From Rhizophagus irregularis (Eukaryota), in contig NC_089435.1 in NCBI RefSeq assembly GCF_026210795.1, positions 4,836,001-4,900,000 on the forward strand: DNA of 64,000 nucleotides. The letters run 5' to 3'. Both the position numbers and the translations under genes were made by a program. This document shows positions 30,189 to 62,689 of this stretch, piece by piece (position 1 is the first letter of the stretch; every line of letters starts with the position of its first letter). The notes beneath the pieces are model-generated. The model did no database searches and was not told the origin of the DNA. It worked only from the letters and a program-made list of their open reading frames with translations.

Positions 30189-30572
30189 TATAGGTGTCGT
30201 CGAAATTAATTACGGATTTTACCACGGTTACGGCACGTGCCGCATTGCCGACCGTAAAAACCGTAAAATTTTATTAAGGCATTAAGTTCGGCCAGAGTTA
30301 AATGATCTTCGCGATAATTTCCTTTTTTGGAATATGGTGTAACCATTGTGTAACTCGATTCTCCATTTTTGATGGGAAGCAAAATTTCCTTTTATGGAAA
30401 TCTGTGTAACGTCACGTGATATAACAACAAAATTCGGCCGGCATTACCGGCATTACCGGCATTATAAACCTATTTACGGCATTACGGATAATTTACGGAT
30501 TTCGCCGAATTAATTACGGTATAGCCGAAATGCCAAAATTGCCGTAATTCATGAATTTCGACGACAAGTATA
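30189..30572. mobile_element. hAT MITE, 8-bp TSD CTGTTGAG, present only in the right foldback arm
   Basis: ctgttgag|TATAGGTGTCGTCGAAATT...AATTTCGACGACAAGTATA|ctgttgag. The empty site is visible in the left arm near 27132-27140. Confidence 0.92.
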
Positions 30573-34369: not shown

Positions 34370-34825
34370 GAATTGCAGTGAATTTATTCTGAATTATGAT
34401 AAATTTTGATAAATTGCGATAAATTTTAATCTGAATTGCAGTAAATTTTAATCTGAATTGCAGTAAATTTTATTCTGAATTGCGGTAAATTTTATTCTGA
34501 ATTGCGGTAAATTTTCTATTCTGAATTGCGGTAAATTTATTCTGAATTGCGGTAAATTTTATTTTGAATTGCAGTAAATTTTAATCTGAATTGCAGTAAA
34601 TTTTCTATTCTGAATTGCGGTAAATTTATTCTGAATTGCGGTAAAAATTTAATGAATTGCGGTTAATTTTATTCTGAATTGCGTCTGAATTGCAGTAAAT
34701 TTTATTCTGAATTATGGTATATTTGCAGTAAATTTTATTCTGAATTGCGGTAAATTTGCAGTAAATTTATTTCGAATTGTAATTAATTTTTTTCTGAATT
34801 AAGACAAATTTATTTTGAATTATGG
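34370..34825. repeat. About 21-bp subterminal tandem repeat of the CACTA element
   Basis: Unit TTATTCTGAATTGCGGTAAATT. Confidence 0.9.
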
Positions 34826-34922
34826 AAAATTCTAATACTAATAATTTGGAATATTAATTACATATATATATAGATTTTTGACGAAAAAAAGAAAGTTTTC
34901 TACCAAATTAATTCAGATTCGT

Positions 34923-37240
34923 TCATTGCGCATCATCCATATGTAAATCAGAATCTGAATTATTATGATTGTTGCTGACCGTTGATTTTGATGGTTTTTC
35001 TTCTCCTTCCTTGTTATGGTCTTCATCATTTTCGGTAGTGTTGCCAGTTGCTGGTGTTGTCCCTCTACTAACTTCTTCTTCTTTTTCATCATATTCAGTG
35101 ATTAAATCCTGATCAATATCAGTATCGAATATTAAATCTTGTTGTTGTACAATATAAAACCATTCCGACTTATTTGACGAGTGTATATTGAGTACATTTT
35201 GTAGCAAATTTTTAAGCTGAAGAAACAATAAAATATAAAAATTAAATCCAGCAATTCGTCTGAAAAATCAAGATTCAGAAGTTCTAACCTCATCAGATCT
35301 CCACGAATAGTCGTAAATAGCGATTATGAACTTTGTTGGGTCTTCTTCGTCTGTCTCACTTATTTCTGAAGAATGAAATAAGCGATTGGATAACATCTTT
35401 AGTAATCTACGCTTATCATATTTTGTTATCCGTTCATCGTCAAAACTATATAATCTCTTTGCCGCCTTAATTCGGCGGATTTTCTTCTAAAATACGTTAT
35501 AATTTGAATAAAATTCAATACATAATTGGAATAAAATTCAGCATAATAATTATAAATCATTACTAACGTCGTGTACTCGATTGTTTGAGTGCACCCGGTG
35601 TTTATTTTCATTGGCTTTTCCCCTATCCATTAATCTTTGATGAGAACGACGAGACTTGTGGAGACAACCTAACTATTTTGTAAGTTGCTTATTCGAAGCG
35701 GGAAAATACGGAGCAAGGGCTGAACGCAATTCAGGGACTAGCTTACGACGAATCTTGAGATTTTTCACGCTATTGAACGTTTCATTGTAATCTAGTCCTC
35801 GAGTTTCATCGATGGTTTTCAAAATAGACTTCATTTCAGCCTAAATATAACAATCAAATAATGATAACCGGTACTTAATTACTCAATACTGCAATTTTAA
35901 ATAACTGAATCAGACAAATAAAATTAATATACCCTAGCTTCTTTTTCGTCGTACTCATCATTATTGTTAGAACTAAACCGTTCTTCCTCTGATTCTTTCT
36001 CGTATTGCTTGGACTTTTTTGTCTTAATTCTTTTTTGACATTTTGCCGGCTGTTCGAGATCCGTCTGCCTATGAATGGCTTTAGGCAGACAGATTCTCGA
36101 ATACCTGTTTAAGCTTTCGCGTAGATCATCATTCTCGTCTGCAAAGGCCTCATTTATTCGAGTCAAAAAACGATTTTCGTCGAATAATCGGTTATTTTCG
36201 CATTGAAGCTTTGCATTCTCTACTTGTACTTCTTCAATTTGTTTCTTTAATTTTAGATTTTCTAAATAAAGAATTTTATTAATAGTAATATTTTTTTACA
36301 AATAATTCTGAATTTATACGAATGAAGTCAAAATCGTACCTGCTTCTAAATCAGTATCATCGTCATCGATCATCCTTTCATTACCTTGATCGTCTTTAAC
36401 CACTAATACGAATTTTTGTGGAATTCGAATATTCCCATATCATTTTTTCATTTCCGATAACATCTCTTGTTGATCTATAAAAATTATTAATTATCGTACA
36501 TGTCAATCAGCAATTTTCCAAAATTCAATTACCTTTAGGAATATTTGGCGGTTCAATTTCTATAACCTCATCGTCAGACTCTTCTTGAGTCAGCTTAGTC
36601 GACTTTGCAGATTTGAGGATCGACTTGATGGGTGACGATTTGCTAGTCGACTTATTGGTTTTGTCAATCGTCTCATTCGGATTACTTTCTTCTTCCGTTC
36701 TTCCCCGTTGACGATTAGATCCTTCGTCAGGTATTTCTTCTTGAAACCTTTGCTGCTTTTGTTTGTTTGACTTGGTGGGTGACGATTTGCTAGTCGACTT
36801 ATTGGTCTTTCATTCGGATCACTTTCTTCTTCCGCTCTTCCCCGTTGACAATTAGATTCTTCGCTCGGTGTTTCTTCTTGAAACCTTTGCTGCTTTTGTT
36901 TGTTTGACTTGGTGAGTGACGATTTGCTAGTCGACTTATTGGTTTTGTCACTCGTCTCATTCGGATTACTTTCTTCTTCCGTTCTTCCCCGTTGACGATT
37001 AGATCCTTTGTCAGGTGTTTCTTCTTGAAACCTTTGCTGCTTTTGTTTGTTTGACTTGGTGGGTGACGATTTGCTAGTTGACTTATTGGTCTTGTCACTT
37101 GTCTCATTCGGATTACTTTCTTTTTCCGTTCTTCTCCGTTGACGATTAGATCCTTTGTCAGGTGTTTCTTCTTGAAACCTCTGTTGCTTTTGTTTGTTAT
37201 TTTTTTTATTGTTTTTTTTATTATTGCTATTATTTGACAT
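34923..37240 (-). pseudogene. Second, divergently transcribed multi-exon gene of the CACTA element (accessory ORF), degenerate
   Basis: Starts MSNNSNNKK. Four 120-bp coding repeats (QRFQEETPDKGSNRQR..), GT-AG introns near 36531-36478, 36338-36262 and 35930-35842, a coiled-coil-like middle and an acidic C-terminus. Contains frameshifts and stops. Confidence 0.65.
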
Positions 37241-37319
37241 TTTATATTCACTCAATATTCGTTTAAAAAATCGAAGCGGGTTCAATATCGTCATATCGTC
37301 CTATTTATAAATTTAAAAA

Positions 37320-38510
37320 TCATCAATTAATTAATAAGAAAATCGTTAGCGTTCTACTGCGTTGATTTCTCGATTGAAAAATCAACTATAAATCATAATT
37401 AAAAAAGACAAATCAATTAATTAATAAGAAAATCGTTAGCGTTCTACTGCGTTGATTTCTCAAGGAAAATCAACTATAAATCATAATTAAAAAATCAAAT
37501 AAATTAATTAATAAGAAAATCGTTAGCGTCCTACTGCGTTGAATTCTCAATTGGAAAATCAACTATAAATCATAATTAAAAAAGACAAATAAATTAAAAT
37601 TACGAAAATCGTTAACGTCCTATTGCGTTGATTTCTCGATTGAAAAATCAACTATAAATCATAATTAAAAAAGACAAATCAATTAATTAATAAGAAAATC
37701 GTTAGCATCCTGCGTTGATTTCTCGATTGAAAAATCAATTATAAATCATAATTAAAAAAGACAAATAAATTAAAATTACGAAAATCGTTAGCGTTCTACT
37801 GCGTTGATTTCTCGATTGAAAAATCAATTATAAATTATAATTAAAAAAGACAAATAAATTAAAATTACGAAAATTGTTAGCGTCCTACTGCGTTGATTTC
37901 TCAATTGAAAAATCAACTATAAATCATAATTAAAAAAGACAAATAAATTAAAATTACAAAAATCGTTAGCGTTCTACTGCGTTGAATTCTTAATTGAAAA
38001 ATCAACTATAAATTATAATTAAAAAATCAAATAAATTAATTAATAAGAAAATCGTTAGCATCCTGCGTTGATTTTTTGATTGAAAAATCAATTATAAATC
38101 ATAATTAAAAAAGACAAATAAATTAAAATTACGAAAATCGTTAGCGTTCTACTGCGTTGATTTCTCGATTGAAAAATCGACTATAAATCATAATTAAAAA
38201 AGACAAATAAATTAAAATTACGAAAATTTTTAGCGTCCTACTGCGTTGAATTCTCAATTGAAAAATCAACTATAAATCATAATTAAAAAATCAAATAAAT
38301 TAATTAATAAGAAAATCATTAGCGTCCTATTGCGTTGATTTCTCGATTGAAAAATCAACTATAAATCATAATTAAAAAGACAAATCAATTAATTAATAAG
38401 AAAATCGTTAGTGTCCTGCGTTGATTTCTCGATTGAAAAATCAATTATAAATCATAATTAAAAAGACAAATAAATTAAAATTACAAAAATTGTTAGCATT
38501 CTACTGCGTT
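37320..38510. repeat. About 88-bp satellite (about 13 copies) between the two CACTA genes
   Basis: Unit AAAATCGTTAGCGTTCTACTGCGTTGATTTCTCGATTGAAAAATCAACTATAAATCATAATT... Confidence 0.93.
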
Positions 38511-39032
38511 AAAATTTGATATACTTTAATGCGGCAAGTTATACTTTGTCAAAATTTGCAGTAAAATTGAAAATATATTGTTATTATAGCAATACCACTT
38601 CGATTAATACAAAATTGTTACTTTTCAACTTTCGCTAAAATTTACAGTTTCTTTTGATAAGGTTTGTTTGGCATCCGAAAATGATAAAGGGATGATAAAG
38701 TGATTATCTTGTAAATAAAAGTTATTTTAAAATAAAATAAGCTTTTTATTTTAATAATAAGCTTTTTATTGTAAAATAAGCTTAAATCATATTGCAATTT
38801 TTAAAAGTATATTAATTAGAAAATTCGCAAATTTATTATATAAAATTGCCAAATTTGCGAAAAAAAAATATTAAATCCTAAAAAATTATTGAAATAATTA
38901 TAGAAGCCAGGATTACATTAATTATACATACAAATTATACAAATTTTGTGTTATTTCAAATTTTATAAAAATCGGCCTTTTTACAAATTTGGATTTTGCC
39001 AAACTTATTAAACTTATTTAAATACTAAACAA

Positions 39033-42000
39033 ATGAGCAGAAAAAGGTCAGTCTCTAGTATACTTGACGATCTTGATGATGAAGAATCACCTTCAAATCA
39101 GCCATCTTCTACTCGTAGAAATAGATCAATTTCTGGTATAATAAACGAAGAAATAGTATCTTCTGCTGGACCAACAAGTAATAAAAGAAAACTAGTAGTT
39201 TGTAATTGTCCTGATTGTGATGGCAACTTGGTGGATTCTCGCACAAAAGAAATTCACGATTCTAGACATTAAGAATACCAAGATTCGCAAGGTACAATTT
39301 TGTCTCAAGTTCGTCAACTTGAAATAGGTGAAACATCAATACCCGCTTCAGCTGGACGAATGATTGATGAATCTATTAGACAAGAATCGGAAAAATCAGA
39401 TAACAGTAATCAAGATGATGTTGATGATGAACATCAAGATGTCGAATTTAACTTCTTACCTCGACAACGTGCAAGAAAGTATACAAATCATCCAGAAATT
39501 TCAGAAGATCCAGAAGATTCATCATCATCCGAATATACTACAGAGGAAGATATCTACAGTGATACATTGTCTATAGGCAGTGAATCAGATAATGATCCAA
39601 TTTCTGGAATTTCTGAAATTTTTGAAGACTATTCACCACCTAGTTATGAACCATTTCAAAACCCACCATATTTAGAATCGAATTATGATCGATTTTTATG
39701 GATTTTACTTTGGATAATGAACTTTCGAACAAGATTTAATATCGCAAAGACAGCTACTGAGACTCTAATAAAATTTATGAAATTGGCCCTGTGCGAGTTC
39801 AGTAGTGACGATTTTAATGATTTCCCAGATTCGCTTTACTTAACAAGAAAGAAGCTTGGATTAAATGACCAATTTCATAGTTTTGTACCTTGTCCGAAAT
39901 GTCACAAATTATATAAAAAAGAGGAAGTGGTAGATTTCAAACAAGAGGACAATCCTGCTATAATGAAATGTCAACACATAGAATTTCCCAATTCTTCAGT
40001 TCACAAATTACGTCTTTGCAATACGGCATTATCTGAAAAAATTAGCACATCGACAAATTGAACAATAATACGACCTAATTTAATGTATCCGTTTGCTGGA
40101 ATCAATCAAGAACTTGCCACTATGTTTTGTCGGTCTGGGTTTGAAAATTCTCTCTGACATTGGGCTAATCGGTCGAATTTTGATAATATTTTGACCGATA
40201 TATATGATGGGCAAGTGTGGAAGAATTTTAAAGAATCGGACAATGAAGATTCGCCAAATTTTTTCAGAAGTGAAGTGGCCGATTCTCATCTTGGCTTTAT
40301 GCTGAATCTTGATTGGTTTCAGCCATATGATAGTACCATTTATAGTATCAGTGTCATATACGCCGCTATATGCAATTTGCCACGCGATATTCGATTTAGA
40401 CGTGAAAATTTATTGACTCTCGGCATTTTACCTGGGCCAAAGGAGGTCAGCCTACATAAAGTGAACCACTATTTAGCACCAATAGTTAACAAATTGGAAA
40501 CACTCTAGGTTGGGTTAACACTAAATCGTACTTATGAATGCGAAAATGGAAAGAGAGTTCGTGGCGCTTTAATCTTAGTATCATGTGACATTCCCGCTGC
40601 AAGAAAAATTTGCGGTCATGTTTCTGCCTTAGTTTCATGTCACAGGTGTGAGAAAAAAGCAAATTATGAAAATGGGCAGCATAATTTTGCTGGAATGGAT
40701 GATGTAAGGTAAGGTTGCTTGCCGAAATCAAGTAGTTTAGGCCAAGGCCGAAACTTTTTTAAAACCGAAAATTTAGGCAATTAAAAGTAAATTTGCCGAA
40801 ATTATACAATGCCGAAACTTTTACTGAAAGGCCGAAATTTGGCCGAAATTATTGGCCAACATTAATACTATAATTCTGGCCGGAATAATGATCGACATGT
40901 AAATTTCCTTTTATGGAAATTTGTGTAACATTTGTGCGACACATTTCTCCGATTTTACTGGGAAACAAAATTTCCTTTTTTGGATATTTGTGTAACGTCA
41001 CGTGACACAATATCATAATTTCGGCCGAATTTTAATTTTGGCCAAAATTAAGACCGAGTTTCGGCCTAATTTCGGCATTTTCGGCATTTGATTTGATTGG
41101 CCGAAACCTTTCGGAATTTCCTTTTTAGTTTCGGCAGGCAACCTTAATGTAGGGTATTCTGCTTGAGATTCGAATGAGCACCGGCAAAACGCATTAGGTT
41201 GGCGAAGATGCAACTCAGACACTGCTAGAAAGCGCTTCGTCAAAGAAACTGGCGTTAGATAGTCCGAATTGTTGCATCTATCATATTTCGACTCTATTAG
41301 ATTTATTACAGTCGATCCAATGCATTGCTTATTTCTGGGCATTGCGAAGTGGATAGTAAAACGAATTTGGATCGATAGGGGTATTTTGACACCAAATTCT
41401 TTGAACAAAATTCAGAAAAAGATGGACGAGTTTCAGATACCATCCGATTTAGGTCGAATTCCAGGAAAAATTCATAGTGGAGAGGGATTCACCAATTTTA
41501 CGGCCAATCAGTGGCAAATATTCTTTACAATTTATTCAACTGTATCACTTTGGGAACACCTTTCAGACGTAGATAGAAGAATCCTGAATCATTTTGTCAG
41601 AGTTTGTTCGATTTTGGTAAATCGGATTCTAGAATCTAATTTGGTGGATGAAGCCCATAGAAGTCTTATCGAAATAGTCAAGCTCATTGAGAATCACCAC
41701 GGCAGAAATAAGATCACACTGAATCTTCATCTTTCTCTGCATTTGCGTGATTGCTCATCTGATTATGGACCATTATATGCGTTCTGGTGTTTCTCTTTCG
41801 AACATATGAACGGTATTTTAGGTAAATATCCGTTAATGATTTTTTAACGATTTTAACGATTTCAATATTAGCTTATAATTTATTGATTTCGCACTTTTAG
41901 GTTCGTTACCAAACAGCAACAGGAAAATTGAGTCTGAACTTATGCGTCGATTAATGTTTGATAAACAAATCGAAAATATCATAAGTTCAGGTATCGAAGT

Positions 42001-42732
42001 AAAAGGTCTTGAATTGCTAAACAGTCAGCGTACTATCGGGTCCCTTTCAGTTACTGATGAATTTTCGTCAGATGAGATGCATCGATTTTGGCTGAATTCA
42101 CAAAATATTAAAGATTCACAGATGTCTGGCAAAGAAGGCTTCCCAGGTGAATTTCTTAAGCCGGTATCTCATAATATACTACTTTCAAGTGAAATGTTAA
42201 ATTTAATGGTCGAATATTACAATGCGATTTACGAATCATTTGGATTTCGGAGGCCTCTTGTAGAAGGTTTAGATAACGATATAATAATTAGGGTCAAAAT
42301 TAACCAATTCGGAAGGTGTCGGATTGGTTCAGAAGTCTTTGGATCGTCATTATCGTTAAGACATGTAAAAAGTTCGTACGTCTTAGCGAAATTTATTACG
42401 GATGATGAAGATGTTGACACCTACCCAGGTCAAATTCAGTATTATTTTACTCACGTAGTAGACTTTCCGGATGGTCCTGTCAAACATTTTCTAGCATACA
42501 TTCGTTAGTATAAACACGCAAATTCAACCAATATTCGATACTATTTCAGCAGTAATGAAATTTGTAATGTTGAGTTGTGGAATACCGAATTTTATCCAAT
42601 AAGTCGTGATTGTATAATACCTGTGCATCATATTTTAGGTAGATTTGTACCAGTAAGTTACCAAATCTCAAACCGGCAAAATGCAAGAGAGTATTTAGCC
42701 GTAAATCCAATTAGTAGAAAATACCAATTATA
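39033..42732 (+). pseudogene. CACTA transposase (Tnp2/Transposase_21-like) with in-frame stops, an intron (~41822-41900) and a MITE insertion
   Basis: Motifs CPKCHKLY, DIYDGQVWK, LNLDWFQPY, LPGPKE, CDIPAARKICG, DPMHCLFLG, LHLSLHL and YGPLYAFWCFSFE are typical of fungal CACTA transposases. Confidence 0.9.
40710..41146. mobile_element. hAT MITE inside the CACTA transposase, 8-bp TSD (1 mismatch)
   Basis: atgtaagg|TAAGGTTGCTTGCCGAAA...TTTCGGCAGGCAACCTTA|atgtaggg, with GCCGAAA subterminal repeats. Confidence 0.88.
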
Positions 42733-42864
42733 AACTTATAAGTTTTAGACATAAATTTATAATAAATTGAGTAATTGACTATAAATTTTGTGTTGATTTT
42801 TCCGAATTTCTGAATTTTAATGACAAATCATGTTTTTCAAAAGTTAATTTTGATGACTTTTTTT

Positions 42865-43610
42865 GTATCAATCAGCCGTCAATCAAATATAATGATTTTT
42901 TGCCGAATTTTTATTGAATTTTTATTGAATTTTTATTGAATTATCAATTTTCCATAAATCGGAAGTACATATTTGAATATTGGGTAAATTTTAGGTTGAT
43001 TTGTCATTTTGTCTGATTTTTTTTTGATTTCAACCAGCATCAATCACCGTCAATCAAATATAATGATTTTTTGCCAAATTTTTATCAAATTTTTATTGAA
43101 TTTTTATTGAATTGTCAATTTTCCATAAATCGGAAGTACATATTTAAATATTGGGTAAATTTTAGGTTGATTTGTCATTTTGTCTGATTTTTTTTTTGAT
43201 TTCAACCAACATCAATCAGCCGTCAATCAAATATAATGATTTTTTGCCAAATTTTTATCAAATTTTTATTGAATTTTTATTGAATTGTCAATTTTCCATA
43301 AATTGGAAGTACATATTTGAATATTGGGTAAATTTTAGGTTGATTTGTCATTTTGTCTGATTTTTTTTTTTATTTCAACCAGCATCAATCAGCCGTCAAT
43401 CAAATATAATGATTTTTTTCTGGATTTTTATCAAATTTTTATTGAATTTTTATTGAATTGTCAATTTTCCATAAATTGGAAGTTCATATTTGAATATTGG
43501 GCAAATTTTAGGTTGATTTGCCATTTGTCTGATTTTTTTTTTGATTTCAACTAGCATTTATCAGCCGTCAATCAAATATGATGATTTTTTTCTGGATTTT
43601 CATTAAATTG
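42865..43610. repeat. About 172-bp tandem repeat (4+ copies), right subterminal region of the CACTA element
   Basis: ATCAATCAGCCGTCAATCAAATATAATGATTTTT recurs near 42867, 43038, 43211, 43384 and 43559. Confidence 0.9.
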
Positions 43611-44588
43611 TCCGATTGGCATCAATCAGATGTGCTGATTTGTAATGTCAGTCGATTTTGGTCTGATTTTTAGCTGATTTTCCATATGTCTGATTTTTTT
43701 GATTTCGACTAGTAATAAGCATTTCACCTCCACCCCATAAATACATCCTTCCGTCGTTATTAATAATGCCTGTTAAACTCCATTTTCTAATTGCATTAAC
43801 TCCAGCTATTTTTGGAATACTTCACACAACACTTTGTGAATCAAATGCATATACCAATGCCATTGTTTGATCAGTTGTGAGTCCTCTGTATAAAAATAGT
43901 GTATCATTATTTGGACCACCTTTAACTGATATTGCAGAAGAATGAGGTGGAACCATATTAATATTTGATAAATCTTGCCATGATAATTCTTGAGTATTAA
44001 ATGGTACAGAAACATCAAGGTAAAAAAATTCATTTATTTGTTTTTTGTTTAAATCATATCCATCCAAAATATATAATTTATTATCAATGAGTGTAGCAGT
44101 ATGACGACTATATACATTTGGTTTAAAGGGCGTCATTTGACAATTTACTTTAACCAATGCTTGAAGTAATATCCATAATATGAAATAAACCAAAGGATTT
44201 CTTGACATAATCGTAATTTATTTAATAGTAGAAATGAATAATATTAATATTTAAGAAAAAATATTTATTCACTTTTTAAAAAAAGAATTTTACGGTATTT
44301 AAATTTTTAGCATTACACTTAGCAAAAACATGGTTGCATAGAACGGATTATAATATTCAAGTATTTATTTTTCACAACAATATAATTAATGCACACCCAC
44401 ATACCCTATGCAAATTTATTAGCACAATTTCCATATGTGTTGCATAAAATCATAAGATAATGATTCAATAATGCTAAAACGTTACCCAAATAATTAAATT
44501 AATTTTTTGGCTTGAAAATACGCTGTGCAAAAAAGATGATCCAATAAGAAATAAATTGTTACGATGTTTGTGATCAACAATTAATTAA

Positions 44589-44839
44589 CCCTCATATCAA
44601 ATAATTCGATAGATTTTTTTGTGCCAAAATGATGATCATATCCTGGAATGCATTAGATCATTGACAATCATATCTTAAAATGAAGAATGATGAAAAATTG
44701 TGAAAAATTGTGCGTTTTTATGGATTAGTTAATGCATTTTTATGGATTAGATTTTGCATTTAATTTAACCATAAGTCCAAATTTGGATGAAAAAGTCAGA
44801 TAATTTTATATATATGTTAGTATAGCGAAGCTAACGTTT
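44589..44839 (+). mobile_element. Terminus of a TTAA-CCCT (piggyBac-like) element, copy 1; LINE target
   Basis: ttaa|CCCTCATATCAAATAATTCGAT..., homologous to 62689-62457 in reverse orientation. Ends at TAGCGAAGCTAACGTTT. Confidence 0.7.
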
Positions 44840-45291
44840 ATTTAAAAATAATTTTATTATAAATAATATTTTTTTAATGAAGGAAAATAATGTTTCAATA
44901 GAATTAGATAAATTGGATATTTCCAATTTGAATAAAATAATAGGTGGGCATGAATTAATTATAAATATAATTACACCAAAAGTTTATATAAAATATTTGA
45001 AACAATTAAGAAAATATAAATTAATGTTTCTAGATCAACTAACTACATTAAAAGGAGATTATTTTTTTAACTTTTTGGCAATTTAAACAACGACGTTTTG
45101 TTGGAAATTTAAGATCAAGTAATATTACCCCAAAAATTTTTTCAATATTAAATGATATTACAATAGAAGATAAATATACGAATTTATTGAAACCACGTTA
45201 TCGGTATAGTAATGTAATTAATAATTTAAAAGGTTACGAATTAATTTCACCAAATGAATGTAAGAAAAAACAATTTATAATGTTTTGGAAT
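44840..45291 (+). mobile_element. 5'-truncated, 3'-deleted fragment of the same LINE as 58266-62456
   Basis: Near-identical (about 3 differences seen) to the reverse complement of about 60411-60861. Confidence 0.92.
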
Positions 45292-46220
45292 ATGTAATAG
45301 CAAAAGGTAAGTGAATTTAATGGATTTAATAATTTTATAATAATATTACTAATATAATACTTTATTTATTTAGATTAATCAATGATTTGGAATTCTTTAA
45401 AATAAGAAACAAGGCTATAGCTCCATTTGTTTATTCACGAATAGTATCTCTTCAAGCTTTTTTATCATTAGGAACCAGGAATCCTCCAATTTCAAATGAA
45501 ATATTCCAATTATTAAACGAAGAAAATTAAGATATTGCATCTTTTGTTTCATTATTTTCTAGAGCTTTTATATTGGCAAATGAAAAATGTGAGAAACATA
45601 TATCTCATCATCCAGCTTTATTATTTTTCAAAGCAATACAATGTTTTGATCCAAGATTTATTCAATCTAATTCATCTAATCATAATATGGAAAATTATAG
45701 AATTATCAAAGAATTTTATCTTCCTACTGATACTTTAATACAAGAATGGGTTATTTACTGTGGACTTAATGAATCTATTGAAGAGTTTGATGATTTGGAT
45801 TTGTATTGGCGAGGTAAAAAGACATATATTACCAGAACTTAGTTCACTGGCTTTAATATATATATGGTTGTGGTGTAAATATTGAACGTAGTTTTTCTAG
45901 TTATAAAAGCATTTTATCAGATAGAAGAGTAGCGCTTAAAGAAGAAAATATTCAAATGCTTAATTTTCTTTATTTTAATCTTAGTAATAATGATGATTAT
46001 AATAATGAATTGATGATTTATGAATAATATAAATGTATAAATTTATTACTTAATTGTAAATAAATAAATAAAATTTGTATAGAATATAAATTATTAAAAA
46101 GTTTTCATAATCGGAATTATGGTAATTCTGGCTGAAATTATGGATCACGATTTTCACGATTTTTGTGATTTTTCACGCCTGATTTTTGGGCCATCACGAC
46201 GTCAAATCCTGGACACCCTA
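45292..46220 (+). mobile_element. 3' part of a hAT transposon (C-terminal dimerisation domain pseudogene plus terminus)
   Basis: DLDLYWRG..PELSSLALIYIWL..NIERSFSSYKSILSDRRVALKEENIQML. Ends GGACACCCTA after TCACGA subterminal repeats. Confidence 0.8.
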
Positions 46221-47889
46221 CTATCGATCTGCATCAAAGTCACGTGATAGTAACAGTAATTCGTATTACATTTATCACGAAAATAAAGTGTATACGTGGA
46301 TTTAAAGTTTATATGTTTAATTTTAAAGTAATTTATTCAAAATAAATATTAACTCAAAATAACGAAACAATACAAGTAAATAAATACTAATTCATTAATC
46401 ATAATAAAAAAATAAAATATTGGAGCAGTAATCCCTAGGGAATAGATAGGGGCCAACTTAGGTTACACAAACTAACGGATTATAAATTTGAACTGAAGTC
46501 TTAATAAAATCAGTTACACAAAAAAAACTATATTAAATCGTGCAAAATTTTTAGTTTTTTTTTATTTTTTTGATATGCGCATATAAAAGAGTAGCTGATT
46601 TTAAAAGTTAAGGTCAACAACTTGAGCTCTAATGGATGGTGCAATTTTTATTAAAATTGGTCTACTGTAGCTTTTTAAAGTTCGCTTTCTTTTTTAAAAT
46701 AATATATAGGTAACATTTATTTCAATCATTACGTTTGAAAGTGAACAGTAAACTTTATTATTTTTATCAAAATAATTTCTCTACATGTTTTTGTCTATTT
46801 TCCAACAAAATTATAGTTTATGATGTAAACATTTGTCTTTTTAACATAGCCTCTTCACAAAATTGAGTTTCTTTTTTGAGATGATCAAAAATTAAAGGTA
46901 TCAAATTTTTTTTTTGTTTAATTTTAGCATTAATATTATTTCCAAATACCCAAAGTAACCACTGTAATTCTGATACTTGAATTATCTTTGAAAATGCTTT
47001 TTCAGCACCATCCAGCTGTGCTCAAATTCGAAGCTGTACTAAACCAAGTAAAAGATCTTGTGGAATATTGGCTTTCTTTATCGAAGAAAATTTATTTTCA
47101 CTTTTTGGGAGGGTTTGTGTATCATTGTAAAATGCCTTCAAATTCTCACAAAGACTTGAAGTTCCTTTTTCAGGAATAAGATCATTAAACTTTCGCCATG
47201 ATTTTTGTCTGCTTTTCATGTAGATGGAAATAATACGTTCATAAAGAAAAACTCTTACATCATCTTTTAGTTCTTGACTTTCATCTTTTGATTCTTGATT
47301 TTCATCTTTTGTTTTATGAGTCAAAAGTTGCTGACTAGCAAAATCTAAAAGTGAGTTGAAAGATTGAAACAATGGTAAGTTGCAAAACAAACTATTATGT
47401 ATATATTGGAGGATATTTGGCCCAAATTCTTCATATTTAAAAGAATTAATGATTCCATTTTATACATAAACTCTCATCACGAAGTTAAACTAAGCATTTA
47501 CCAACCGTTTATTAAATGCTTTAAGAATATTTAATTTAAGCGCTTATTAAACAAGTTTCAACGCAGCTTGTATTCGATAAGCATTATTTTTTTATTGCTA
47601 ATTGAATAATAATATTATGTATTAAATTTGCATTAGAAATTAGTATAATTAAAATACTTAAATTAATTATATAATAAATAATAGTATATTATGCTATTTT
47701 AATATTGATATTTATTATTATTTTACTATTCAATTTTATTATTATATTTATACATATTGTTCTGTTATATTACATATGATATATTTTTATATTACAACTA
47801 ATTAAATTTTTCAACACTTCCAAAGACCCTCCCTGCCATTTAAAATTAAAAGATTTCCAATTATTTAACGAATTTTCATGCATCCAGAG

Positions 47890-49675
47890 ACCAGGTTGTC
47901 TAATAAAAAAGAGAATGAAATTAAATAAATAAAACTAGTCAAAAAAAATACTTCAGATTCCTCTTACCAAAATTCTACGCTTCCAAAGATCTGGTCATCT
48001 GGTCATCTGGTCATCTAGAAAAAAAAAAGATAAAAATCAAATGTTAGTAAGATGTTTCGTTAAAAGAAATAAATCAAAGAAACTCCAATACTTACCGAAA
48101 TTGAATTACCTAAATCCAACATGTTCAGACCCGGAGAACCAGAATCCAAGATCCGCCTAAAAAAAATAATAATGAAATGTTAATAAACGTTTCATAAAAA
48201 TAAAAAATAAAAAAACCCATTGAAAACAATGTAGCTATCTATTTTTTTGATGTATTACTATTAGGACCTGTTTTTCATTTTCAAGTGTATTATTATGTTT
48301 ATTATCCATATCTTTATTAAAATTACCAATAGAGAACCAGAGAACCGGTCACCTAAAAAAAAGAAAAAAGAGAAACCAAAACGTTAGCAAACGTTTTGTT
48401 AAAAAAAATTTTTTAAAGAAAAACAATTACCAAAATCTCGCGTGTCCAGGCCCATCTAAAAAAAGAAAGAACGAAATATTAGAATACATTTCATTCGTTT
48501 CGTTAAAACAAATAATAGCGAAAAAATAGCTCACCTAATCCAACGTGTTTTCTATTATCCCATCTTGATTTTCATTGTTTTTAGTCGTGGATTGTAACGA
48601 AATGATTTCATTCAAATAATGCATGCCATCCAGGTCCGAAGAGCATGCCATCTAAAAAAAGGAAGATAACGAAATGTTAGACAGTTTGTTAAATAAATAA
48701 AATTAAAAATTTTTTTTTGATTTCTTACCGGAATTCAAGATCCGTCTAAAAAAAGAAAATAATGAAACGTTAGTAAACGTTTCGCTAAAATAAATAAAAG
48801 AAAAAAATAAGATAAATTGAAAAAAACTTACGAATCTGCGTCAAAAAAGGTTTGAAAAAGCTGACTAAAAAAAAGAAATAAGACAAAACGTTAATAAACA
48901 TTTCATTAAAATAAATAATAAAATAAAAGAAATAAATTACTTACCGAAATGTCATGTCCAAAGAGCCGAAGACCTGCCTAAAAAAATAAAAAACGAAATT
49001 GTTAGGTTAACATTTCGTTATAATAAAGATGTTTAAAAAACAAAAACAAAACAAAATATATACAATAATCTGCGCGTACAAAGACTTGAAGAAAAAGAAG
49101 CTGTCTAAAAAGAGAAAGATAAATGAAACGTTAGTAAACATTTCATTAAAGAATTATAAAAAATAGCCCCTCTCTTACCAAATTCAAGTACTCAAATCCA
49201 AGCCATCTAAACTTCAGAAACTAGAAAGATCTGCCTAAAAAAGAAAAAGAAACGAACTATTAGTATAGTTCGTTAAAAATAAAAAATTTAGTAAAAAAAA
49301 ATTAAGACTTACCGAATTCCTAAGCCATCATCAATTATTTTAATAAAAGGAATGTGACAAAAATTTGAAGAGCTCTAAAAAAGAAAAAAAAGTGAACTGT
49401 TAATACAGTTCGTCAGAGTAGTTAAATTAAAGAAAATAAAAAAATATACCGAAAACTTACATGTCAAAAGAAACCAAAAGACCGTCTAAAAAAAAAAATG
49501 AAACTGAATTTCCACGCATCTAAATATACAAAAAAAGAACAAACTGTCTAAAAAAAATCAAAAAAATGAGCCATTAGAAACTAGCTCGTTAAAATAAATA
49601 TAATTGAAGAAAAAAAATAGTTTACCGGAAATGTTGTGTCCAATGAGACTGAAATAACCGTCTAAAAAAGAATTT
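47890..49675 (-). repeat. Array of about 14 related intron/micro-exon units
   Basis: The minus strand repeats GTAAG/GTATA/GTGAG donor, TACTAAC-like branch point and poly-T-AG acceptor, separated by 17-117-nt exon-like segments. Confidence 0.78.
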
Positions 49676-50059
49676 TAGATTTTTTTTGTAGGTGATTTTA
49701 ACTTTTTTTTTAAACAGAAGAGGGAAAGGATGAAAAAGAGGAAAGAACGAATTTGAAGAAGAAAAAGATTGAAGGAAATGGAAATGGAGAGAATAAAAAA
49801 AAGAACAAAAAAAAAAGAACGAAGGGAAGGAAAATGGGAAAAGGAAATGTAATGTAAATCCCGATAGATAAGCTTATAAAAATTATCAATTTGATAATCT
49901 ATATCACGTGGTACCTGTAACACTAATTTAACAAAGTAATTAGAACTCCAACTTGACCTGAAACTTTTTTTCGGTCGAATCAGGTCAGGTGACCTGTATC
50001 GAACTGCACTAACCTGATCTACCTGTTTGACCAAACCTGATTTTTTCAGGATGGGTAAT

Positions 50060-50735
50060 TTTTCATAAATAAAAGTGAAAAACGCCGATTGGCTTTTTTT
50101 CATAAAAAATAATGAAAAAATGCCACAAACTGGCATTTTTCATAAATAAAAAGTGAAAAAAATGCCATAAACTGGCATTTTTAATAAATAAAGTTAAAAA
50201 ATGCTGGAATGGCGTTTTTTTTTTCAAAAAAATAATGAAAATGCCATAAGCCGGCATTTTTCATAAATAGAAGTGAAAAAACGCCAGAATGGCGTTTTTT
50301 TTCATAAATAATTATGAAAAAATGCCACAGCCTGGCATTTTTCATTAAAAAATGTGAAAAAACGCCGAAATGGCATTTTTTTTATAAATGAATATAAAAA
50401 AAAATGCCATAAGTCAGCATTTTTCATAAAAAGAAGTGAAAACCGCCAAAATGGCGTTTTTTCATAAATAAATATGTAAAAAATGCCATAAACCGGCATT
50501 TTTCATAAATAAAAGTGAAAAAACGCCGGATTAGCATTTTTTTTATAAATGAATATAAAAAAAATGCCATAAGTCGGCATTTTTCATAAATAAAGTGAAA
50601 AAATGCCAGAATGGTGTTTTTTCATAAATGAATATGAAAAAAATGCCATAAACCGGCATTTTTCATAAATAAAGTGAAAAAATGCCGGAATGGCGTTTTT
50701 TTTCATAAATAAATATGAAAAAATGCCATAAACCA
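50060..50735. repeat. About 40-bp satellite of short palindromic units, inside an ACCTGA-rich hAT-like MITE (about 49941-50830)
   Basis: Alternating GGCATTTTTCATAAATAAAAGTGAAAAAACGCC and GGCGTTTTTTCATAAATAAATATGAAAAAATGCC units. The flanks carry GACCTG repeats ending GAGCACTA. Confidence 0.85.
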
Positions 50736-53700
50736 GGGTTGAAACTTTAACCCGACCTGGTACTAGATCATGGATATTTCAGGTCAACCTGATCAGGTCA
50801 CCTGAAATCACCTGACCTGTTTAGAGCACTAAGTCAAAGTTTATATTATTATACTAAAGGTACTTATGAAAAGCCTCTAAGGCTTAATATAAAAAATAAT
50901 AAAATTTAAATGCTCATATTTTATACCTTTTTAATGATAAATTCAAATGCTTAATTGGTATTTTTTTTCATAGCAATTAATAAGTATTAATCTAAAATAT
51001 TTTTTAAGCATTTTGTTAAAGCAGCAATTATAAAGTATTTAATGATAAATATTTAATTTGTAATCTATTATAATGATAACTAAATACTTATTTTAAATAC
51101 AAATAGGTATTCATAAAACATTAAGCATTCAGTAAATACAAAATTTAAGCATTTATTAAATAATTTGTGTTTGATGAATACAAGTCTAACATTTGATCAA
51201 CTTCGTGATGCTAGGAATTTTTGTCCAGGAATCACATTTGTTATTTGAGATCAAACATCCTTCTCATAGATTACTTGTTTCGAATTGAAAATTTCAAGAT
51301 AGGTACAAATATCTTTAAACTGGAAGTGTGATTTTGTTACGTGATCATTTTTAGTTAATTTATAAATAATCCATCCAACGATATAGGAAAATTTTGATGC
51401 TTCAGCTGGTTCCAAAATAATAATATTCTTTGGCGTTATATTACAGTCTGCAGCAAAGTTAGTTGGATTTTTTTCATCGCTTTTTTTGAATGTATATTTA
51501 ATTACATTTTGCAAAAGTAAATATACAATAAGCCTTAAGACTGAAGAATCATGCAATTTAGTTTTTGCCAAAAATTCCTGATACCAGCTACCAGAACATT
51601 GATAGTTATTCAAACGGAGTTCAAAGGTAGAATTCCAAATAGTTAACCATTGAACCCCTATTTTCTTTGGAACAGATTCACAAGCAATTTTTTTAATATT
51701 ATCTTTCCACAATTGTAATAATTCATTAATAGAATCCAAATAAAGTATAACTTCAATAAGATTTTGTCATTCAATTTGAAGCTGATAAATTCTAAGATTT
51801 TCATAATCAACATTATCATTAAAGGACTTTAACGGAAATGTAAATCTTCCCATAGTTAAATTATCAGTAAAAAGATTTTTAAAGATAGTACAAGAAAATG
51901 ATGATAATTGTAACAATCGCATATTGTATTTTTGAGAAAGATCATTTTCATTTTCTTTGTTTTCTTCATTATGTAATTTTTTTCTTTTCGGTAATCTCTA
52001 AAAATTAAATAAAAAACATTTAATTAAATTTTATTTATAATTAAAAAATTGAAAATACTGTATATACCTTCTTGTTAAAGAATTAATACCAATACCAGTA
52101 GTATTATTAGCTATTCCATAATTAATGCTTTTTATTTCAGATGAAACTAATGCTGTAATTTGATATTTATTTAAAGTATGTCCATATGATTTTAGTGTTT
52201 GTGTGGAAGAATCTCCTCCAAGTTCACGAATTACACCAAAAAGACCTTCAAGTATATCTTGTGAAATACATCGTGACTGAACTATTGAACCAGGATATTT
52301 TTTCAAAATAAATTCTAATAGTCCAAGAAAACCATCAATTGATAAAATCAAATCAAATTGACATTGTGGTGAGATCCATTCCATATGTCCTGTCTTTTGT
52401 TTATTCCTATATATAAACCAATTATGAATTTCTTTTAAAGTATTAACACGCGGATCTTCTATAGAGCAAAAATTGATTTTACTATGCATAATCTGGCGAT
52501 ATTTTCATGCATATTTAATAAATTCCTTAAAAAAAAAAATTGGAATTAATAATACCTCAAATATAAATAAATAATATTCTTTAATAATAACTTACTCTTG
52601 TTCCTTCTGATATATTTTTAAATTTATTGATAGATGCTAATGCATCTTCAACTTCTTTTGATAATGTATGTTCAGCAAGGTCAACACGCATTTTACTCCA
52701 TGAAGTAAGCTATATATGTCGCTTTGTAAGTTTTGTAGCTTTTGCTGTTGCATGTTGATTTGTATATTCATAAACACCTTTTATATGTTTCCAACTAATT
52801 TCCTTTCCATTAATCATTATTTCTCTAGCATTTTTTTTACCAGTGTGACTCTTTGATAGATTATTTCTAAGTTTTTTAAAAACGTGTATTGAATCACTAA
52901 TAAAGAACCACTCTTCGTCTCTTCCCCAGTAATAGGATTATTATAAATAGGTCTAAGAAATTTACTAACATGATAACTAAAAACTTTCCATCTTCTTTTT
53001 GCATATATTCCTTCTACAATTTCTACAGATAATGTTATTTCAATCAGATCAAAATTCAATAATTTTTCCTAAATACCATTGATTATCATCTGGATTTTTA
53101 AATTCACATAACTTATTAACATTCCATTCTAATTTTAAAGGCATTGGTGGATGAATATAAGCTCGATCAATTGTAATTATTTCAGAATTATTATGATTAA
53201 GCTGACGTACAATAAATTTTGATCTTTCAGAATTACTACCTATGATTTCTGCTGCATAAAATGATTTTTTAGTTTTATCAAAATTAATTTCTACCAAATC
53301 ACCAGAAGACCAGGTTGATGCATACCAATCAAAACTCTTTATATGAGTTCTATTTTCTCCTGCACCATCACAAATTGAACCATATGTATGTATGCCAATA
53401 CATTCTAATTTTGCTGCAAGGTTGAATATTAAAGTATTTAAATTATGTGCTGTTAATATATTAATACCATAATAAGCAATTGGAAAGGCAAAGTTATGTG
53501 TTGTTGAGTGCCAAACAATTTGATGAACCTGAGTTGCAAGTTCATTCTTTTGCTTTTGCTTTTCAGATATAGTATTAGATAATGAATTATTTTCTCCTGA
53601 TATTTCACATTGACACTGCAAGGCAAATGATTGATAATCCTGCATTTCATTTTCAAAATCTAAATATCCAACATAACAGTTTTCACGTTGACTCCAAAGA

Positions 53701-55724
53701 AGACCTTTTTAAATTAAATTATTAATTAATTTATTTATATGTAAAATTAAAAATAAAATAAATAAAATTCAATACCTTTTTGAATTTTAAAGGAATCATG
53801 TGAAAAAAATCCTACTCGTCCATATCCCCAAATTTTGTTTGTTGTTAAACTTTCTAACATTTGAGAAGCAATTTTATCTTGCCATCCTGAATGCTGTTCA
53901 CTTTCATTTATATAACTTTTAAGGGTAGAAATTGATGGTAAACGCATTATTGTTTTCATTGCATTATAGGCAGCATTTCCAGATCTACTATATACAGATA
54001 TTGCCCAACGTAAAAACCTATAAAAAAAATTAGTTTTTTTTGTGAAATAAAATAAAGTCATTACTTAATTAATTAATCTTACATTGGATGGTATCTTACT
54101 CCATTTGGTTTTTCACTTTGAATACAAATTAGTTCTTGAAAAATAGGATGAAAATTTGAAATATCTATGTTTTTACTGGTAACATTTTCAGTAGCTGTAT
54201 AAGCAATTTTTTCCATCTCATCAGAGATTTCGCCTCCTTCTTCTTCTATCTTCTTCTGTAAGCAAGTTCTTATATTTGTAATAGTTAAATTTTGTTCTTG
54301 AATTATTTTGCATTGATGATTAATTTTTTTTATAAGAATTTCTTTAGAAGCATGTATAGTTTTCACAGAATTTACACCAGATAAAAATCTTCTATGAATT
54401 TGTTGTATTATTTTATGCACCTTTTAACAATTTTCACATACATTACTATTTTTTACTACAAGCATGCAATTTATATGTCGATATACTTCATCTGATTGAC
54501 CTTTATTCTCCAAAATAGCCAAAACAGCATGCTCTTGTGTATTGCTAACTAATTGATTTCCTCTAATACAAACTATATTTTCAAAACCTTGAATTTTAAA
54601 TTAATAATAAGTAAATAATAAATAAAAATATAAATACTTCAAATTATAAATTTATATTTACCAATGGTACTTTGTCTATAATAAACTTTAAGAAAAAAAA
54701 TATGTTTGATTTCATTAAGAGTTCTTTTCATTGCTTTAATTGGAAATGGAAGATCTACTTCTGGTAATATTTTATTAAATACCCAAACTTCGTAACTAAA
54801 TAAAGCACCTTTAGCAAAAATTATCATCATCTTTTCTGATTTTTTTTTTTTATTAAAAAAGTGAAGTTCAAGACCTTTATTAATTTCTTGTACAATGGTT
54901 CCTATAAATTTTCCACCTGGTAAAATTTCTTTTTGAATTAATAAAAAAATATTTTGAATATCTGCGCAATTAGAAGTTTTTCAGTATGGCGTATAATTAG
55001 ATTTACATAAAATTGATGCAATCGGTATACTAGTAGGATTGGATTCTAAAAAAATAGTTGTAAGAGCTGATTTATATCCTTTAAATAATCCTTGTTTTTT
55101 TAATCCAGTTATCCATTTGGAAAATGTTTCATACTTATGATCATTTTTAATACTATATACATATGCTTTTTTTTCTTTCACATCATATAAAAGTATACCT
55201 TCAAAGTATTTATCCAATGTTGGAAAAAAGTATACTTTTTTTCCTTTAAGTTCTGGTCAAATATGTACAAATTCTTGTAATGCTTCAACTTTTTTTTGCC
55301 GATTTATTGAAGTATTAGTTTTTTCATGAGAAGTAGAAGGCTATTTTGAAATAAGAATTATTAATATAATAAAATTTCTATTTAAAAATAACAACAGCAT
55401 CAATTTTTTTCTTGTTACTCACCATTTTTAACGTTTATCTTATAGTCTATAATCAATTAAAGTCGCTAATTCAAATTATCTTTAGAACTAGAAATGCAAT
55501 AACGATAAAATTCATATCACGTATAGCCACATATTGTATCATCTTGGTGTAATTTAATAGTGTCACAAGAAATTGACTTATTAGCAGGGGAGTAGGGGAG
55601 CTACCATTCGATTCATTCATTGTGTTATAAGATAATAAGAACCATCTAAAAGCGGAAACCAAATAGTAAAGCTTTATTCACTAGTAAATTATTATTTAAA
55701 AAAAAAATTATTATTAAAAAAAAA

Positions 55725-58265: not shown

Positions 58266-58296
<31 letters not shown>

Positions 58297-61200
58297 GTTC
58301 AACTCATATATTTATTAATTTTAGAATAAAGATACAAAACGCGAGTTACAAAAATAAAGCTCTAGCTAACTAGTTACTAAATAGTTGTGGGGGGGATAAG
58401 AATTAATTGCTCTACGAGACGATCTAAATCCCACTGCCGACCCATAAACAACTTTCACCCATCTACTTGATGGACTACTGGAAGACGTATCAACCTTAAT
58501 AGCGTTTATAAACTACACTAACACCTACTGCACCTTTAATTAACTACACTACTACTAATAAATTAAAAATTCTATAAACATAATAACAAAGAGCTACGCT
58601 ATTATGGTACACAACAATTATAGTAATCAATTATTTTTCCTCCATATCTAATGTAATTAACTAATCCTTCTGTATCATTATATTTTTTATCTATAGGAGG
58701 TTTTTTTGTTGTTATACATTTTTCTTTACCATATTGTTCTTTTAAAACATTTTTTGTAATTCCTAATGCGATATTAATTTCATGATAGACAGAACATCGT
58801 TCATTCCAAAAATCTCTAATTAAATTGAAAGAAATTTTCCGGAAATTATATAAAATTTCCTTTGTTTTTTTATAATTTTTTAATTTTCCATTAATAAATT
58901 TACATAAACTTAAAGGAATTATTCCTTTTATTATATCAATACTTGTAAAAAAATCTTCTCTAATTGAATTATCCCAAATATAAGGTAAATCTGGCAAATC
59001 AATATCTTCTACATATAATGCTTGATTTTCTATATGATCATTAATACTATCAATTAAAATTTGTTTTATCTGTTGAATTAATATAAAATTGTCTTCTGAT
59101 CTTTGGTTACATGTCCAAACATGATTAAATTCTTCTTTTTCTATATTACATATTGGACAAAAACGATCTTTAAAAATTGAAAAACATGATTTTTTAATAT
59201 GTTCTATTGTAGGTATTTCTTCAATAAGAAATTGAATCTTTTTTCGCTTTAACTTAGATTCATAAAAATCTGTATGCATAGTACCTTGATCTCCTTGTAG
59301 TAGATAAAATGTAATTTCCCAATCTACTTGTAGTTTTCGATATTTATAATTTCGATTAAGATTTAAAAATTGTTCCAGATTAAAAATATTTGTATATATT
59401 TTTAAAAATTTTCTTAAACTTAATTCTATTGGTACACCATTCCATTTAGGAAAAAATTTAATTAATGATAATGACGTTGTTTTAATATTAATTCCTAAAT
59501 GTTGTATGTAATTATATTTATCTTTCAAATGTTGATTAAATATCGAAAAATTAAGATCATTTTCCTGAACAAGTAAGATATTAACATCTAATGATAATGT
59601 TTTAATAATTTCAAAAATTATAATCCACATATAATTATGGTGTTTTAATTTAAAAATTTGTCGACTCGTTAATGAAAAAAAATTATTAATTCTATAATTA
59701 TTATATGTTTCTATTAATGATTTATCTTTTGTAAGAATAGTTATTCTACTATTTTCTGGTAATATAATTATAGAACATAATAATGCTAAAATTGATGCTT
59801 TTGTTACTGATATATAATTATTATAACTTGAAAAAAATTCTAATATAAATGTCGAATTCAAATCAAATGTACTAAAACCAAAAATTGATTCAGCTTTATC
59901 TGTGCCTATGTTTTTTGCTGATCCATCTATATAAGTTAAAAATTGTTTAACATTTAATGATAGTATTAATCTTTGAGAATATAATAAATCTGATTTATTT
60001 AAAGATAGATCTATATATTTATCAATTATATTAACATTTTGATTCTGAAAATTCATTATAAACCTTGAGTCCATAACTTGATAATATTGTGGATTTAAAT
60101 TTAAATGTTGATTTATTTCCATTATCTGAAAAATATCTACGTATTGAGTTTTTGGTAGAACTAATGTTTTATTTTTTTCAAATTTATCTGTAAAATTTTT
60201 TGTTTTTTCTCCTACTAAAAACATATTAGATGTTTTAAGCTTTAATAAACATTTTTTTGATTCACGAGTATCATTTGCAAAATTACAACCAGAACAAGTT
60301 TGAACTTCCATATAAATACTTTGTTTATCACTTGTGACAATATAATGTCTAATAATGTATTCTTCTCCCTTTTTTTCTTCATCAAAAATTCTTCCTATTT
60401 GTAATCCATTATTCCAAAACATTATAAATTGTTTTTTCTTACATTCATTTGGCGAAATTAATTCGTAACCTTTTAAATTATTAATTACATTACTATACCG
60501 ATAACGTGGTTTCAATAAATTCGTATATTTATCTTCTATTGTAATATCATTTAATATTGAAAAAATTTTTGGGGTAATATTACTTGATCTTAAATTTCCA
60601 ACAAAACGTCGTTGTTTAAATTGCCAAAAAGTTAAAAAATAATCTCCTTTTAATGTAGTTAGTTGATCTAAAAACATTAATTTATATTTTCTTAATTGTT
60701 TCAAATATTTTATATAAACTTTTGGTGTAATTATATTTATAATTAATTCATGCCCACCTATTATTTTATTCAAATTGGAAATATCCAATTTATCTAATTC
60801 TATTGAAACATTATTTTCCTTCATTAAAAAAATATTATTTATAATAAAATTATTTTTAAATTTTGGTAAAAATACATTAATCTCTTTTTTTTGATATGGC
60901 ATATCTACTAAAGGACTTTTATCTAACCATAACTTATTTTGAATATCTATTATTCTAATTCTCATAATATCACCTAATAAACCTCTGTCATTTATTTGTA
61001 TAAAGAAATTATTTATCTTTGCTTGAATCTGATTGGCCCAGATAGAGCGTATATTATATATTAGATTATTCTCTACTATTGAATTAGGCGCTGTTGATGC
61101 AAATTTAAGTTTATTTTTAAACATTCTTCTATACGGTACCATCATTTGATTACATTCTTTTTCTGTAAAAATCGTTACTTGAGATCTATACTCTATTCTA

Positions 61201-62456: not shown

Positions 62457-62689
62457 AAACGTTAGCTTCGCTATACTAACATATATATAAAATTATGTGA
62501 GACTTTTTTATCCAAATTTGGACTTATGGTTAGATCAAATGCAACATCTAATCCATAAAAATGCACTAACTAATCCATAAAACCGCACAATTTTTCATAA
62601 TTTTTCATTTTAAGATATGATTGTCAATGATCTAATGCATTCCAGGATATGATCATCATTTTGGCACATCGAATTATTTGATATGAGGG
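62457..62689 (-). mobile_element. Terminus of the TTAA-CCCT (piggyBac-like) element, copy 2; host of the LINE (continues below 58249)
   Basis: ...TTTGATATGAGGG|ttaa. Homologous to 44589-44839. The far terminus was not found. Confidence 0.7.

Follow-up and report, generated by a model that had tools for sequence, protein, structure and literature searches.

Introners, or introner-like elements, are families of sequence-similar introns dispersed singly in unrelated genes; schistosome micro-exon genes are runs of very short exons, symmetric and coding, for secreted proteins; and non-coding snoRNA host genes and mirtrons have poorly constrained exons and conserved introns. The sister stwintrons of Hypoxylaceae are spliceosomal introns that form families by sequence similarity and are internally symmetric (accessible text of PMC8469720), and the spliced TE-derived lncRNAs of the obligate biotrophic fungus Blumeria hordei, in the available part of their description, run for the most part antisense to TE genes and average 2.3 exons, with more than five in <1.9% (PMC10648671). 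PlavakaB transposons, which belong to the CMCT clade, have 5'-CATCA..TGATG-3' termini and a target site duplication (TSD) of 2 or 3 bp, all TET-carrying (TET+) Plavaka belong to PlavakaB, and the TET/JBP cargo of basidiomycete members is proposed to counter silencing (accessible text of PMC12730594); Plavaka are prevalent in Rhizophagus irregularis (accessible text of PMC11075540). Here we describe in R. irregularis a transposon with PlavakaB-type termini in which a tandemly duplicated exon-plus-intron unit would be the sole cargo, with transcription and splicing probably yielding a short non-coding RNA. The intron array is real, likely spliced and apparently undescribed. We found no description of such arrays in the openly searchable full-text literature, none in the accessible parts of 10.1101/2022.10.19.511543 and PMC9757828, and no occurrence of 'intron' or 'splic' in the main texts of PMC8647823 and PMC11075540.

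The window, that is, the whole 64,000-nt stretch of DNA analysed, is AT-rich and repeat-rich, and a flanking ORF is 94% and 98% identical to R. irregularis proteins, with other Glomeromycotina more distant. Within it lies a non-autonomous DNA transposon of 3736 bp with 12-bp terminal inverted repeats (TIRs) (Table 1), bearing out the sequence-only reading, which had proposed a non-autonomous, TIR-bounded carrier. Its two flanks form one P/THAP-like transposase pseudogene (Pfam TNP-like_RNaseH; tblastn), hereafter the host pseudogene, whose uninterrupted relatives read KFL-EFMY straight through the insertion site; the empty site is seamless, and these relatives fix the TSD at 2 bp. A 1- or 4-base overlap at the empty site, suggested by a first frame test, was discarded when the alignment showed a separate frameshift in the host pseudogene downstream of the insertion site and a clean 2-bp TSD. 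Elsewhere in the window, at 57140–56490 (minus strand), a 500-nt pyrimidine tract preceded by one or two introns lies upstream of the P-like ORF, a layout resembling the interior of L013, one of the related loci described below.

Both the termini and the TSD conform to the PlavakaB pattern. The element is placed there by its ends, because no transposase of that family was seen: an ORF survey of the 3.7 kb found neither a transposase ORF nor any long ORF. PlavakaB members can carry a presumed counter-silencing cargo (accessible text of PMC12730594); this element differs in having neither a transposase nor a TET/JBP gene, its cargo being the intron array. The TIR 12-mer has no match among the entries listed in the available part of the PMC12730594 supplement, and the carrier appears to be a new member of a known lineage. 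Inward from the upstream TIR run AT-rich DNA, the 40/81-bp palindromic repeats, the CACGTG site and the pyrimidine tract (both as the sequence-only reading had placed them), the array and, after ~430 nt, the other TIR. CT-rich core promoters occur in fungi. An Rfam search gave 12 sub-threshold matches, all within the subterminal repeats. Two candidates were rejected: a nested element enclosing the 40-bp repeats, whose score of 40 merely matched the null maximum, and, as partner element, the CACTA remnant at 34168–43714, whose ends are different.

Where about 14 duplicated introns of ~70–95 nt had been claimed, we found 13 well-formed introns of 68–102 nt on the minus strand, separated by exons of 17–117 nt, plus two weak ones (acceptor 49662; 49529–49486). 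A GT donor (with G at −1 in 9), a YTAAY branch-like motif 22–32 nt before the end of the AG (exactly TACTAAC in three) and a T-rich AG acceptor are present in all 13, as the earlier description of the units had it. The nine exon coordinates that it gave are all right, including 49485–49450, for which the donor at 49460 is nevertheless better than that at 49449; at 48326–48157 the intron is 170 nt long unless the donor at 48258 is used. A fixed intron rule applied to 47890–49910 called 13 acceptors, amounting to 12 distinct introns, on the minus strand and none on the plus strand, as against a mean of 0.24 and a maximum of 2 in 1000 dinucleotide shuffles; each of the remaining 2-kb bins into which the window was divided gave 0–3 calls on either strand. 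The array is thus far above chance. When aligned, its introns have a mean column identity of 59%, and 11 of 78 exon pairs are related at p<0.02. Since the exons are also related to one another, duplication as such stands, but the duplicated unit is exon plus intron rather than the intron, and this unit appears to have been amplified in place: in a unit tree used solely for clustering by element, which has few columns and weak support, the 12 window units cluster, with 2 label changes against 11.7 when shuffled.

Table 1. Features of the element, its intron array and the flanking host pseudogene (window coordinates; the array is read on the minus strand, from high to low positions).
Feature	Position	Strand	Basis
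Host P/THAP-like transposase pseudogene, part upstream of insertion	51213..55301	-	Pfam TNP-like_RNaseH
TSD copy 1, 2 bp	51211..51212	.	uninterrupted relatives of host pseudogene
Non-autonomous DNA transposon, PlavakaB-type termini (CATCA..TGATG), no transposase ORF	47475..51210	-	
TIR, 12 bp, perfect, upstream of array	51199..51210	-	
Subterminal tandem repeats, 40/81-bp period, every unit a short palindrome	50060..50734		
CACGTG site upstream of array	49905..49910		
Pyrimidine tract, likely start region or first exon	49715..49850	-	
Weak first acceptor, without good donor or branch motif	49662	-	
Exon, 36 nt; upstream intron weak	49626..49661	-	
Intron, 78 nt	49548..49625	-	
Exon, 87 nt; may contain weak 44-nt intron 49529-49486; alternative donor 49449	49461..49547	-	
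Intron, 86 nt (75 nt from 49449 donor)	49375..49460	-	
Exon, 62 nt	49313..49374	-	
Intron, 78 nt, branch hairpin	49235..49312	-	
Exon, 56 nt	49179..49234	-	
Intron, 74 nt, TACTAAC inside hairpin	49105..49178	-	
Exon, 41 nt	49064..49104	-	
Intron, 86 nt	48978..49063	-	
Exon, 33 nt	48945..48977	-	
Intron, 80 nt	48865..48944	-	
Exon, 33 nt	48832..48864	-	
Intron, 86 nt, TACTAAC inside hairpin	48746..48831	-	
Exon, 17 nt	48729..48745	-	
Intron, 77 nt	48652..48728	-	
Exon, 117 nt, contains longest ATG ORF of spliced model (38 aa)	48535..48651	-	
Intron, 79 nt	48456..48534	-	
Exon, 25 nt	48431..48455	-	
Intron, 78 nt	48353..48430	-	
Exon, 26 nt, longer with 48258 donor	48327..48352	-	
Intron, 170 nt (102 nt from donor 48258)	48157..48326	-	
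Exon, 61 nt, alternative donor 48109	48096..48156	-	
Intron, 81 nt, TACTAAC	48015..48095	-	
Exon, 47 nt, with 8-bp repeat	47968..48014	-	
Last intron, 68 nt, decayed hairpin	47900..47967	-	
Likely terminal exon; AATAAA at 47740 and 47716 (weak evidence in AT-rich DNA)	47700..47899	-	
TIR, 12 bp, perfect, downstream of array	47475..47486	+	
TSD copy 2, 2 bp	47473..47474	.	uninterrupted relatives of host pseudogene
Host P/THAP-like transposase pseudogene, part downstream of insertion	46821..47472	-	tblastn and alignment to uninterrupted relatives

The search for similar arrays that the sequence-only reading had suggested, made as one scan of metagenome contigs with a hairpin–acceptor motif, yielded 23 loci (18 once near-identical ones were merged), probably of arbuscular mycorrhizal fungal (AMF) origin, to judge from composition and flanking kinase-type genes; the intron pattern had no match in the viral and genome contig collections scanned. 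At least two introns were called in 22 of the 23, at least three in 21 and 10–19 in seven, giving 183 introns (142 after removal of 41 near-duplicates; median 80 nt, GC 0.23) and 104 exons (median 33 nt, GC 0.48). Related TIRs, CATC(A/G)G(C/G)AAATT, flank the arrays in five of the 23 loci, always oriented as in the window, and most of the remaining contigs are too short to reveal element ends. The arrays of the window element, L003, L015 and L017 finish with a terminal exon that stops a few hundred bases short of the TIR and has no ORF downstream, and those of L012 and L018 begin near the other TIR. The inverted ends of L013, a small element, are different, and in L004 a DUF7869 ORF, possibly Sola-like, has an array on either side; the two face inward, at 1200–2100 (+) and 4730–5595 (−), one sense and one antisense. 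L012 has the 3' part of the array (3060–3400) followed by an inverted copy (4000–4546), read-through of which would give long double-stranded RNA. Acceptor-only repeats, with a T-tract and AG every 30–40 nt and neither donor nor branch hairpin, occupy 1–1100 of L023 and 1130–1700 of L017 in the array sense. In L009 a hairpin-type acceptor (928–970) comes right after coding-like ORFs, the sole case in which an array intron possibly lies beside a gene.

These arrays share with introners and stwintrons the similarity among introns but differ in that the units are tandem, duplicate together with an exon and are carried along when a larger element moves, and in that the symmetry consists of two local hairpins, not of long terminal repeats of the intron. 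Introners lie singly in unrelated host genes; here 22 of 23 loci have at least two called introns in a row or a cassette, with L009 as possible exception. Nor is the intron alone the mobile entity, since exons are related too and TIR and TSD bound the whole 3.7 kb. The suggestion that the arrays act as a source of new introns fares poorly: the hairpin intron occurs in arrays or transposon-like cassettes at 22 of 23 loci, with only L009 at an ORF end, and four host-gene introns inspected in the window are without the hairpin. Conserved intron parts comprise only the splice signals and a 25–30-nt hairpin, the intron folds are local rather than end to end, and an Rfam search gave no match within the array, unlike what a snoRNA host gene or mirtron would show. 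The cargo is nearest to the Blumeria lncRNAs as the accessible text presents them, being non-coding, probably spliced, TE-borne and from an obligate biotrophic fungus, but differs in build, with 14–19 micro-exons from one duplicated unit and conserved splice signals and hairpins (compare PMC10648671).

The array introns are, with good probability, spliced, as the state of their signals indicates. In a hairpin-anchored, seed-free test, from which search seeds and near-duplicates were removed to leave 69 cores, the pyrimidine tract that follows the core ends in AG in 62 cases (1 of 69 on the opposite strand), and G|GTR lies 20–75 nt upstream of 61 cores (shuffle mean 19, maximum 31); a looser donor pattern, present at 64 of 69, gave no separation from shuffles (mean 54, maximum 64). 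We compared 48 introns, called in one copy only, across 11 copy-to-copy alignments (70–95% identity) with gap-adjacent and CpG columns removed. GT and AG had changed at 5 of 163 sites, against 26.0 expected from the intron background (p=1e-7) or 14.8 from exon flanks (p=0.002), p-values that are optimistic, given the common ancestry of the 11 pairs and the bias of BLAST anchoring towards conserved motifs; with the branch T and A included, 6 of 247 sites had changed against 36.2 or 22.8. An earlier pass on closer pairs was weaker, with 5 changes against 11.5 (p=0.024) and reciprocal pairs counted twice. The proposition on which the sequence-only reading had staked its case, that splice signals are better conserved than their surroundings, therefore holds in related copies, and the opposite outcome, GT, branch and AG positions no more conserved than neighbouring ones, does not. 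Donors, branch motifs and U-tracts come close to consensus, and the four host-gene introns inspected have weaker ones. P0058 (CAB4483366.1), an NCBI R. irregularis gene model of 124 aa over the array that forms a one-member cluster, agrees with the spliced reading at four clear and one marginal of nine junctions tested, being a computed prediction that also takes joints outside the called set.

The branch point had been described as often lying inside an inverted repeat, and the hairpin is real: 12 units give seven consensus pairs, five of them with changes on both sides, including A-U to C-G, although these changes may go back to one or two events. Within the window, hairpin cores with a following acceptor occur only inside the element. 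Folding predicts a loop that contains the 5' part of the branch motif (median paired probability 0.05) and a stem that contains the branch A (0.89 in the window, 0.93 in the loci), a pairing that could slow splicing. Of 130 introns from the loci, 54 have a further inverted repeat across the donor (null mean 2.9, maximum 8), as do none of 12 in the window. The arms are built on CpG-centred palindromes, and double changes at CpG pairs number 18 against 6.8 expected under independence. Mismatches show no excess of G-U over A-C (27 against 23, p=0.67; 22 against 24 at A-T pairs), which leaves the hairpin without a link to the RNA strand; sense and antisense folding energies differ, as expected for a U-rich strand. 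The stem is maintained, either as RNA or as a DNA palindrome.

What such a cassette might do is a matter on which we hold a preferred but tentative view, to which we would give somewhat less than even chances: that it is spliced and non-coding and acts in cis against silencing. We are led to it because only the splice signals are clearly constrained, and these are near consensus, and because the cassette fills the cargo position in which other members of the lineage have a demethylase, a proposed counter to silencing. The HUSH complex belongs to animals. In human cells introns shield transgenes from its action and so counter the silencing of foreign DNA (accessible text of PMC8770142), and R. 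irregularis controls its TEs by RNAi and CpG methylation (accessible text of PMC8647823), which also speaks for this view. A further reason is that CpG is kept in the element (observed/expected 1.34 in the array; 2.11 in loci arrays) and lost in the host pseudogene (0.44 and 0.30); a young insertion fits CpG retention equally well, and the CACTA remnant likewise stands at 1.14. A broader version, in which AMF DNA transposons of more than one superfamily carry protein-free, hairpin-gated intron arrays that are selected only for splicing and that disguise the element as a host gene, shielding it from RNAi and methylation, is somewhat less probable.

On the cis-acting view, Pol II would transcribe from the pyrimidine tract toward the downstream TIR and the U2 spliceosome would remove the introns, with the hairpin loop exposing the 5' part of the branch motif and the stem hiding the branch A until U2 opens it; the array may have grown via slippage or unequal crossing-over. 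Splicing itself likely serves the element, in that its transcript would resemble that of a host gene and escape silencing. More speculatively, dense spliceosome loading might keep the locus transcribed and lightly methylated, and the open termini would then be available to a transposase supplied in trans, so that the array might do the job proposed for the TET/JBP cargo genes of basidiomycete PlavakaB elements.

The same hairpins could have the reverse effect, hiding branch A and donor so that spliceosomes stall and siRNA made from the stalled RNA keeps the family in check, whether as transposon self-restraint or to the benefit of the host. This accords with the predicted pairing of the branch A in most units, with the frequent donor-spanning repeats of the loci, with the inverted array end of L012 and the array antisense to the ORF in L004, and with stalled spliceosomes triggering siRNA in Cryptococcus (Dumesic 2013, as cited in the accessible text of PMC6643885). 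We nevertheless consider it unlikely: the signals that would have to stall are near consensus and stronger than those of the inspected host-gene introns, donor hairpins are absent from the window array, and a non-autonomous element gains little by feeding its own silencing.

Somewhat less likely again is that the array is a relic, the spliced 5' leader (an intron-mediated enhancer) of the transposase or accessory gene of an autonomous parent, left as a passenger by internal deletion. In L004 one array does lie immediately upstream of the DUF7869 ORF in the same sense, and in the host P-like element the ORF is preceded by one or two introns and by a pyrimidine tract, but arrays that end in a terminal exon near the TIR with no ORF beyond (window, L003, L015, L017) or start near the other TIR (L012, L018) do not look like leaders, and no autonomous CATC-type copy was seen.

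Lower still we place a minisatellite of palindromic protein-binding sites, for a transposase or an anti-silencing factor, that amplified one ancestral intron and in which splice signals persist by gene conversion and not by use. Palindrome correction would yield the excess of double changes, the CpG-centred arms and the even G-U and A-C mismatches suit a DNA palindrome, and clustering of units by element and the acceptor-only repeats of L017 and L023 also fit. It is hard to reconcile with GT, AG and branch bases more conserved than their neighbours, hairpin arms included, with signals that are strictly one-stranded and correctly spaced, or with window units that at 59% mean column identity still keep them.

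The array product is very likely non-coding. As had been claimed, exon lengths keep no frame (32/37/35 of 104 for the three remainders modulo 3, p=0.83); only 6 of 19 exon indels, with pairs counted twice, are multiples of three, and the coding check that had been suggested gave, in an 841-nt spliced model, a longest ATG ORF of 38 aa, under the shuffle mean of 42. Protein searches with ORFs of L001 and L023, taken unspliced, found for either locus a single unnamed protein, likewise unspliced. Very short exons are common to these arrays and schistosome micro-exon genes, but here the frames are random, the introns are homologous copies, and neither symmetric exons nor one open frame was found; the properties are those of a spliced TE-derived lncRNA without coding potential. 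A coding micro-exon gene giving variable peptides through exon skipping, to which the 124-aa P0058 and the few exons of 33 or 36 nt might point, is on these frame, indel and ORF data, on the single-member status of P0058 and on the lone match of each of the two other ORFs, very improbable.

Were the cis-acting reading true, what is selected for in a transposon cargo would be splicing itself, a counter-defence that needs no protein, and the arrays would be a natural test of introns marking self versus non-self in fungi. They would also account for spurious orphan gene models with many exons, P0058 among them, and would put a name to part of the ~30% unclassified repeat content of R. irregularis; curation of these repeats, as given in the accessible text, retained an element only if it had a transposase domain or was a MITE <1 kb, and thus misses one of 3.7 kb that has no such domain (PMC11075540). 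Public long-read RNA, small-RNA and methylome sets exist for R. irregularis (10.1101/2022.10.19.511543, accessible part).

The rest of the window holds further repeats and genes. A ~6.7-kb near-perfect palindrome at 25433–32172 has arms 96–100% complementary, 49- and 171-bp internal repeats and a very AT-rich centre, and the CACTA/EnSpm-type element at 34168–43714 has a Tnp2 remnant (plus strand), a second multi-exon gene (minus strand) and tandem repeats of 22, 89, 147 and 173 bp. A LINE at 58266–62492 has a 1296-aa RT-bearing frame and a poly(A) tail, and inverted LINE fragments lie at 44620–45322. Predicted secreted single-pass membrane proteins form a family at 2385–4313, 18459–19298 and 21153–21939, one with ~68 copies of a six-residue repeat, and a 348-bp perfect hairpin follows at 4262–4964. 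Kelch-repeat membrane-protein genes are found at 9586–12190, 32441–34140 and 43760–44217, two of them interrupted by transposon insertions.
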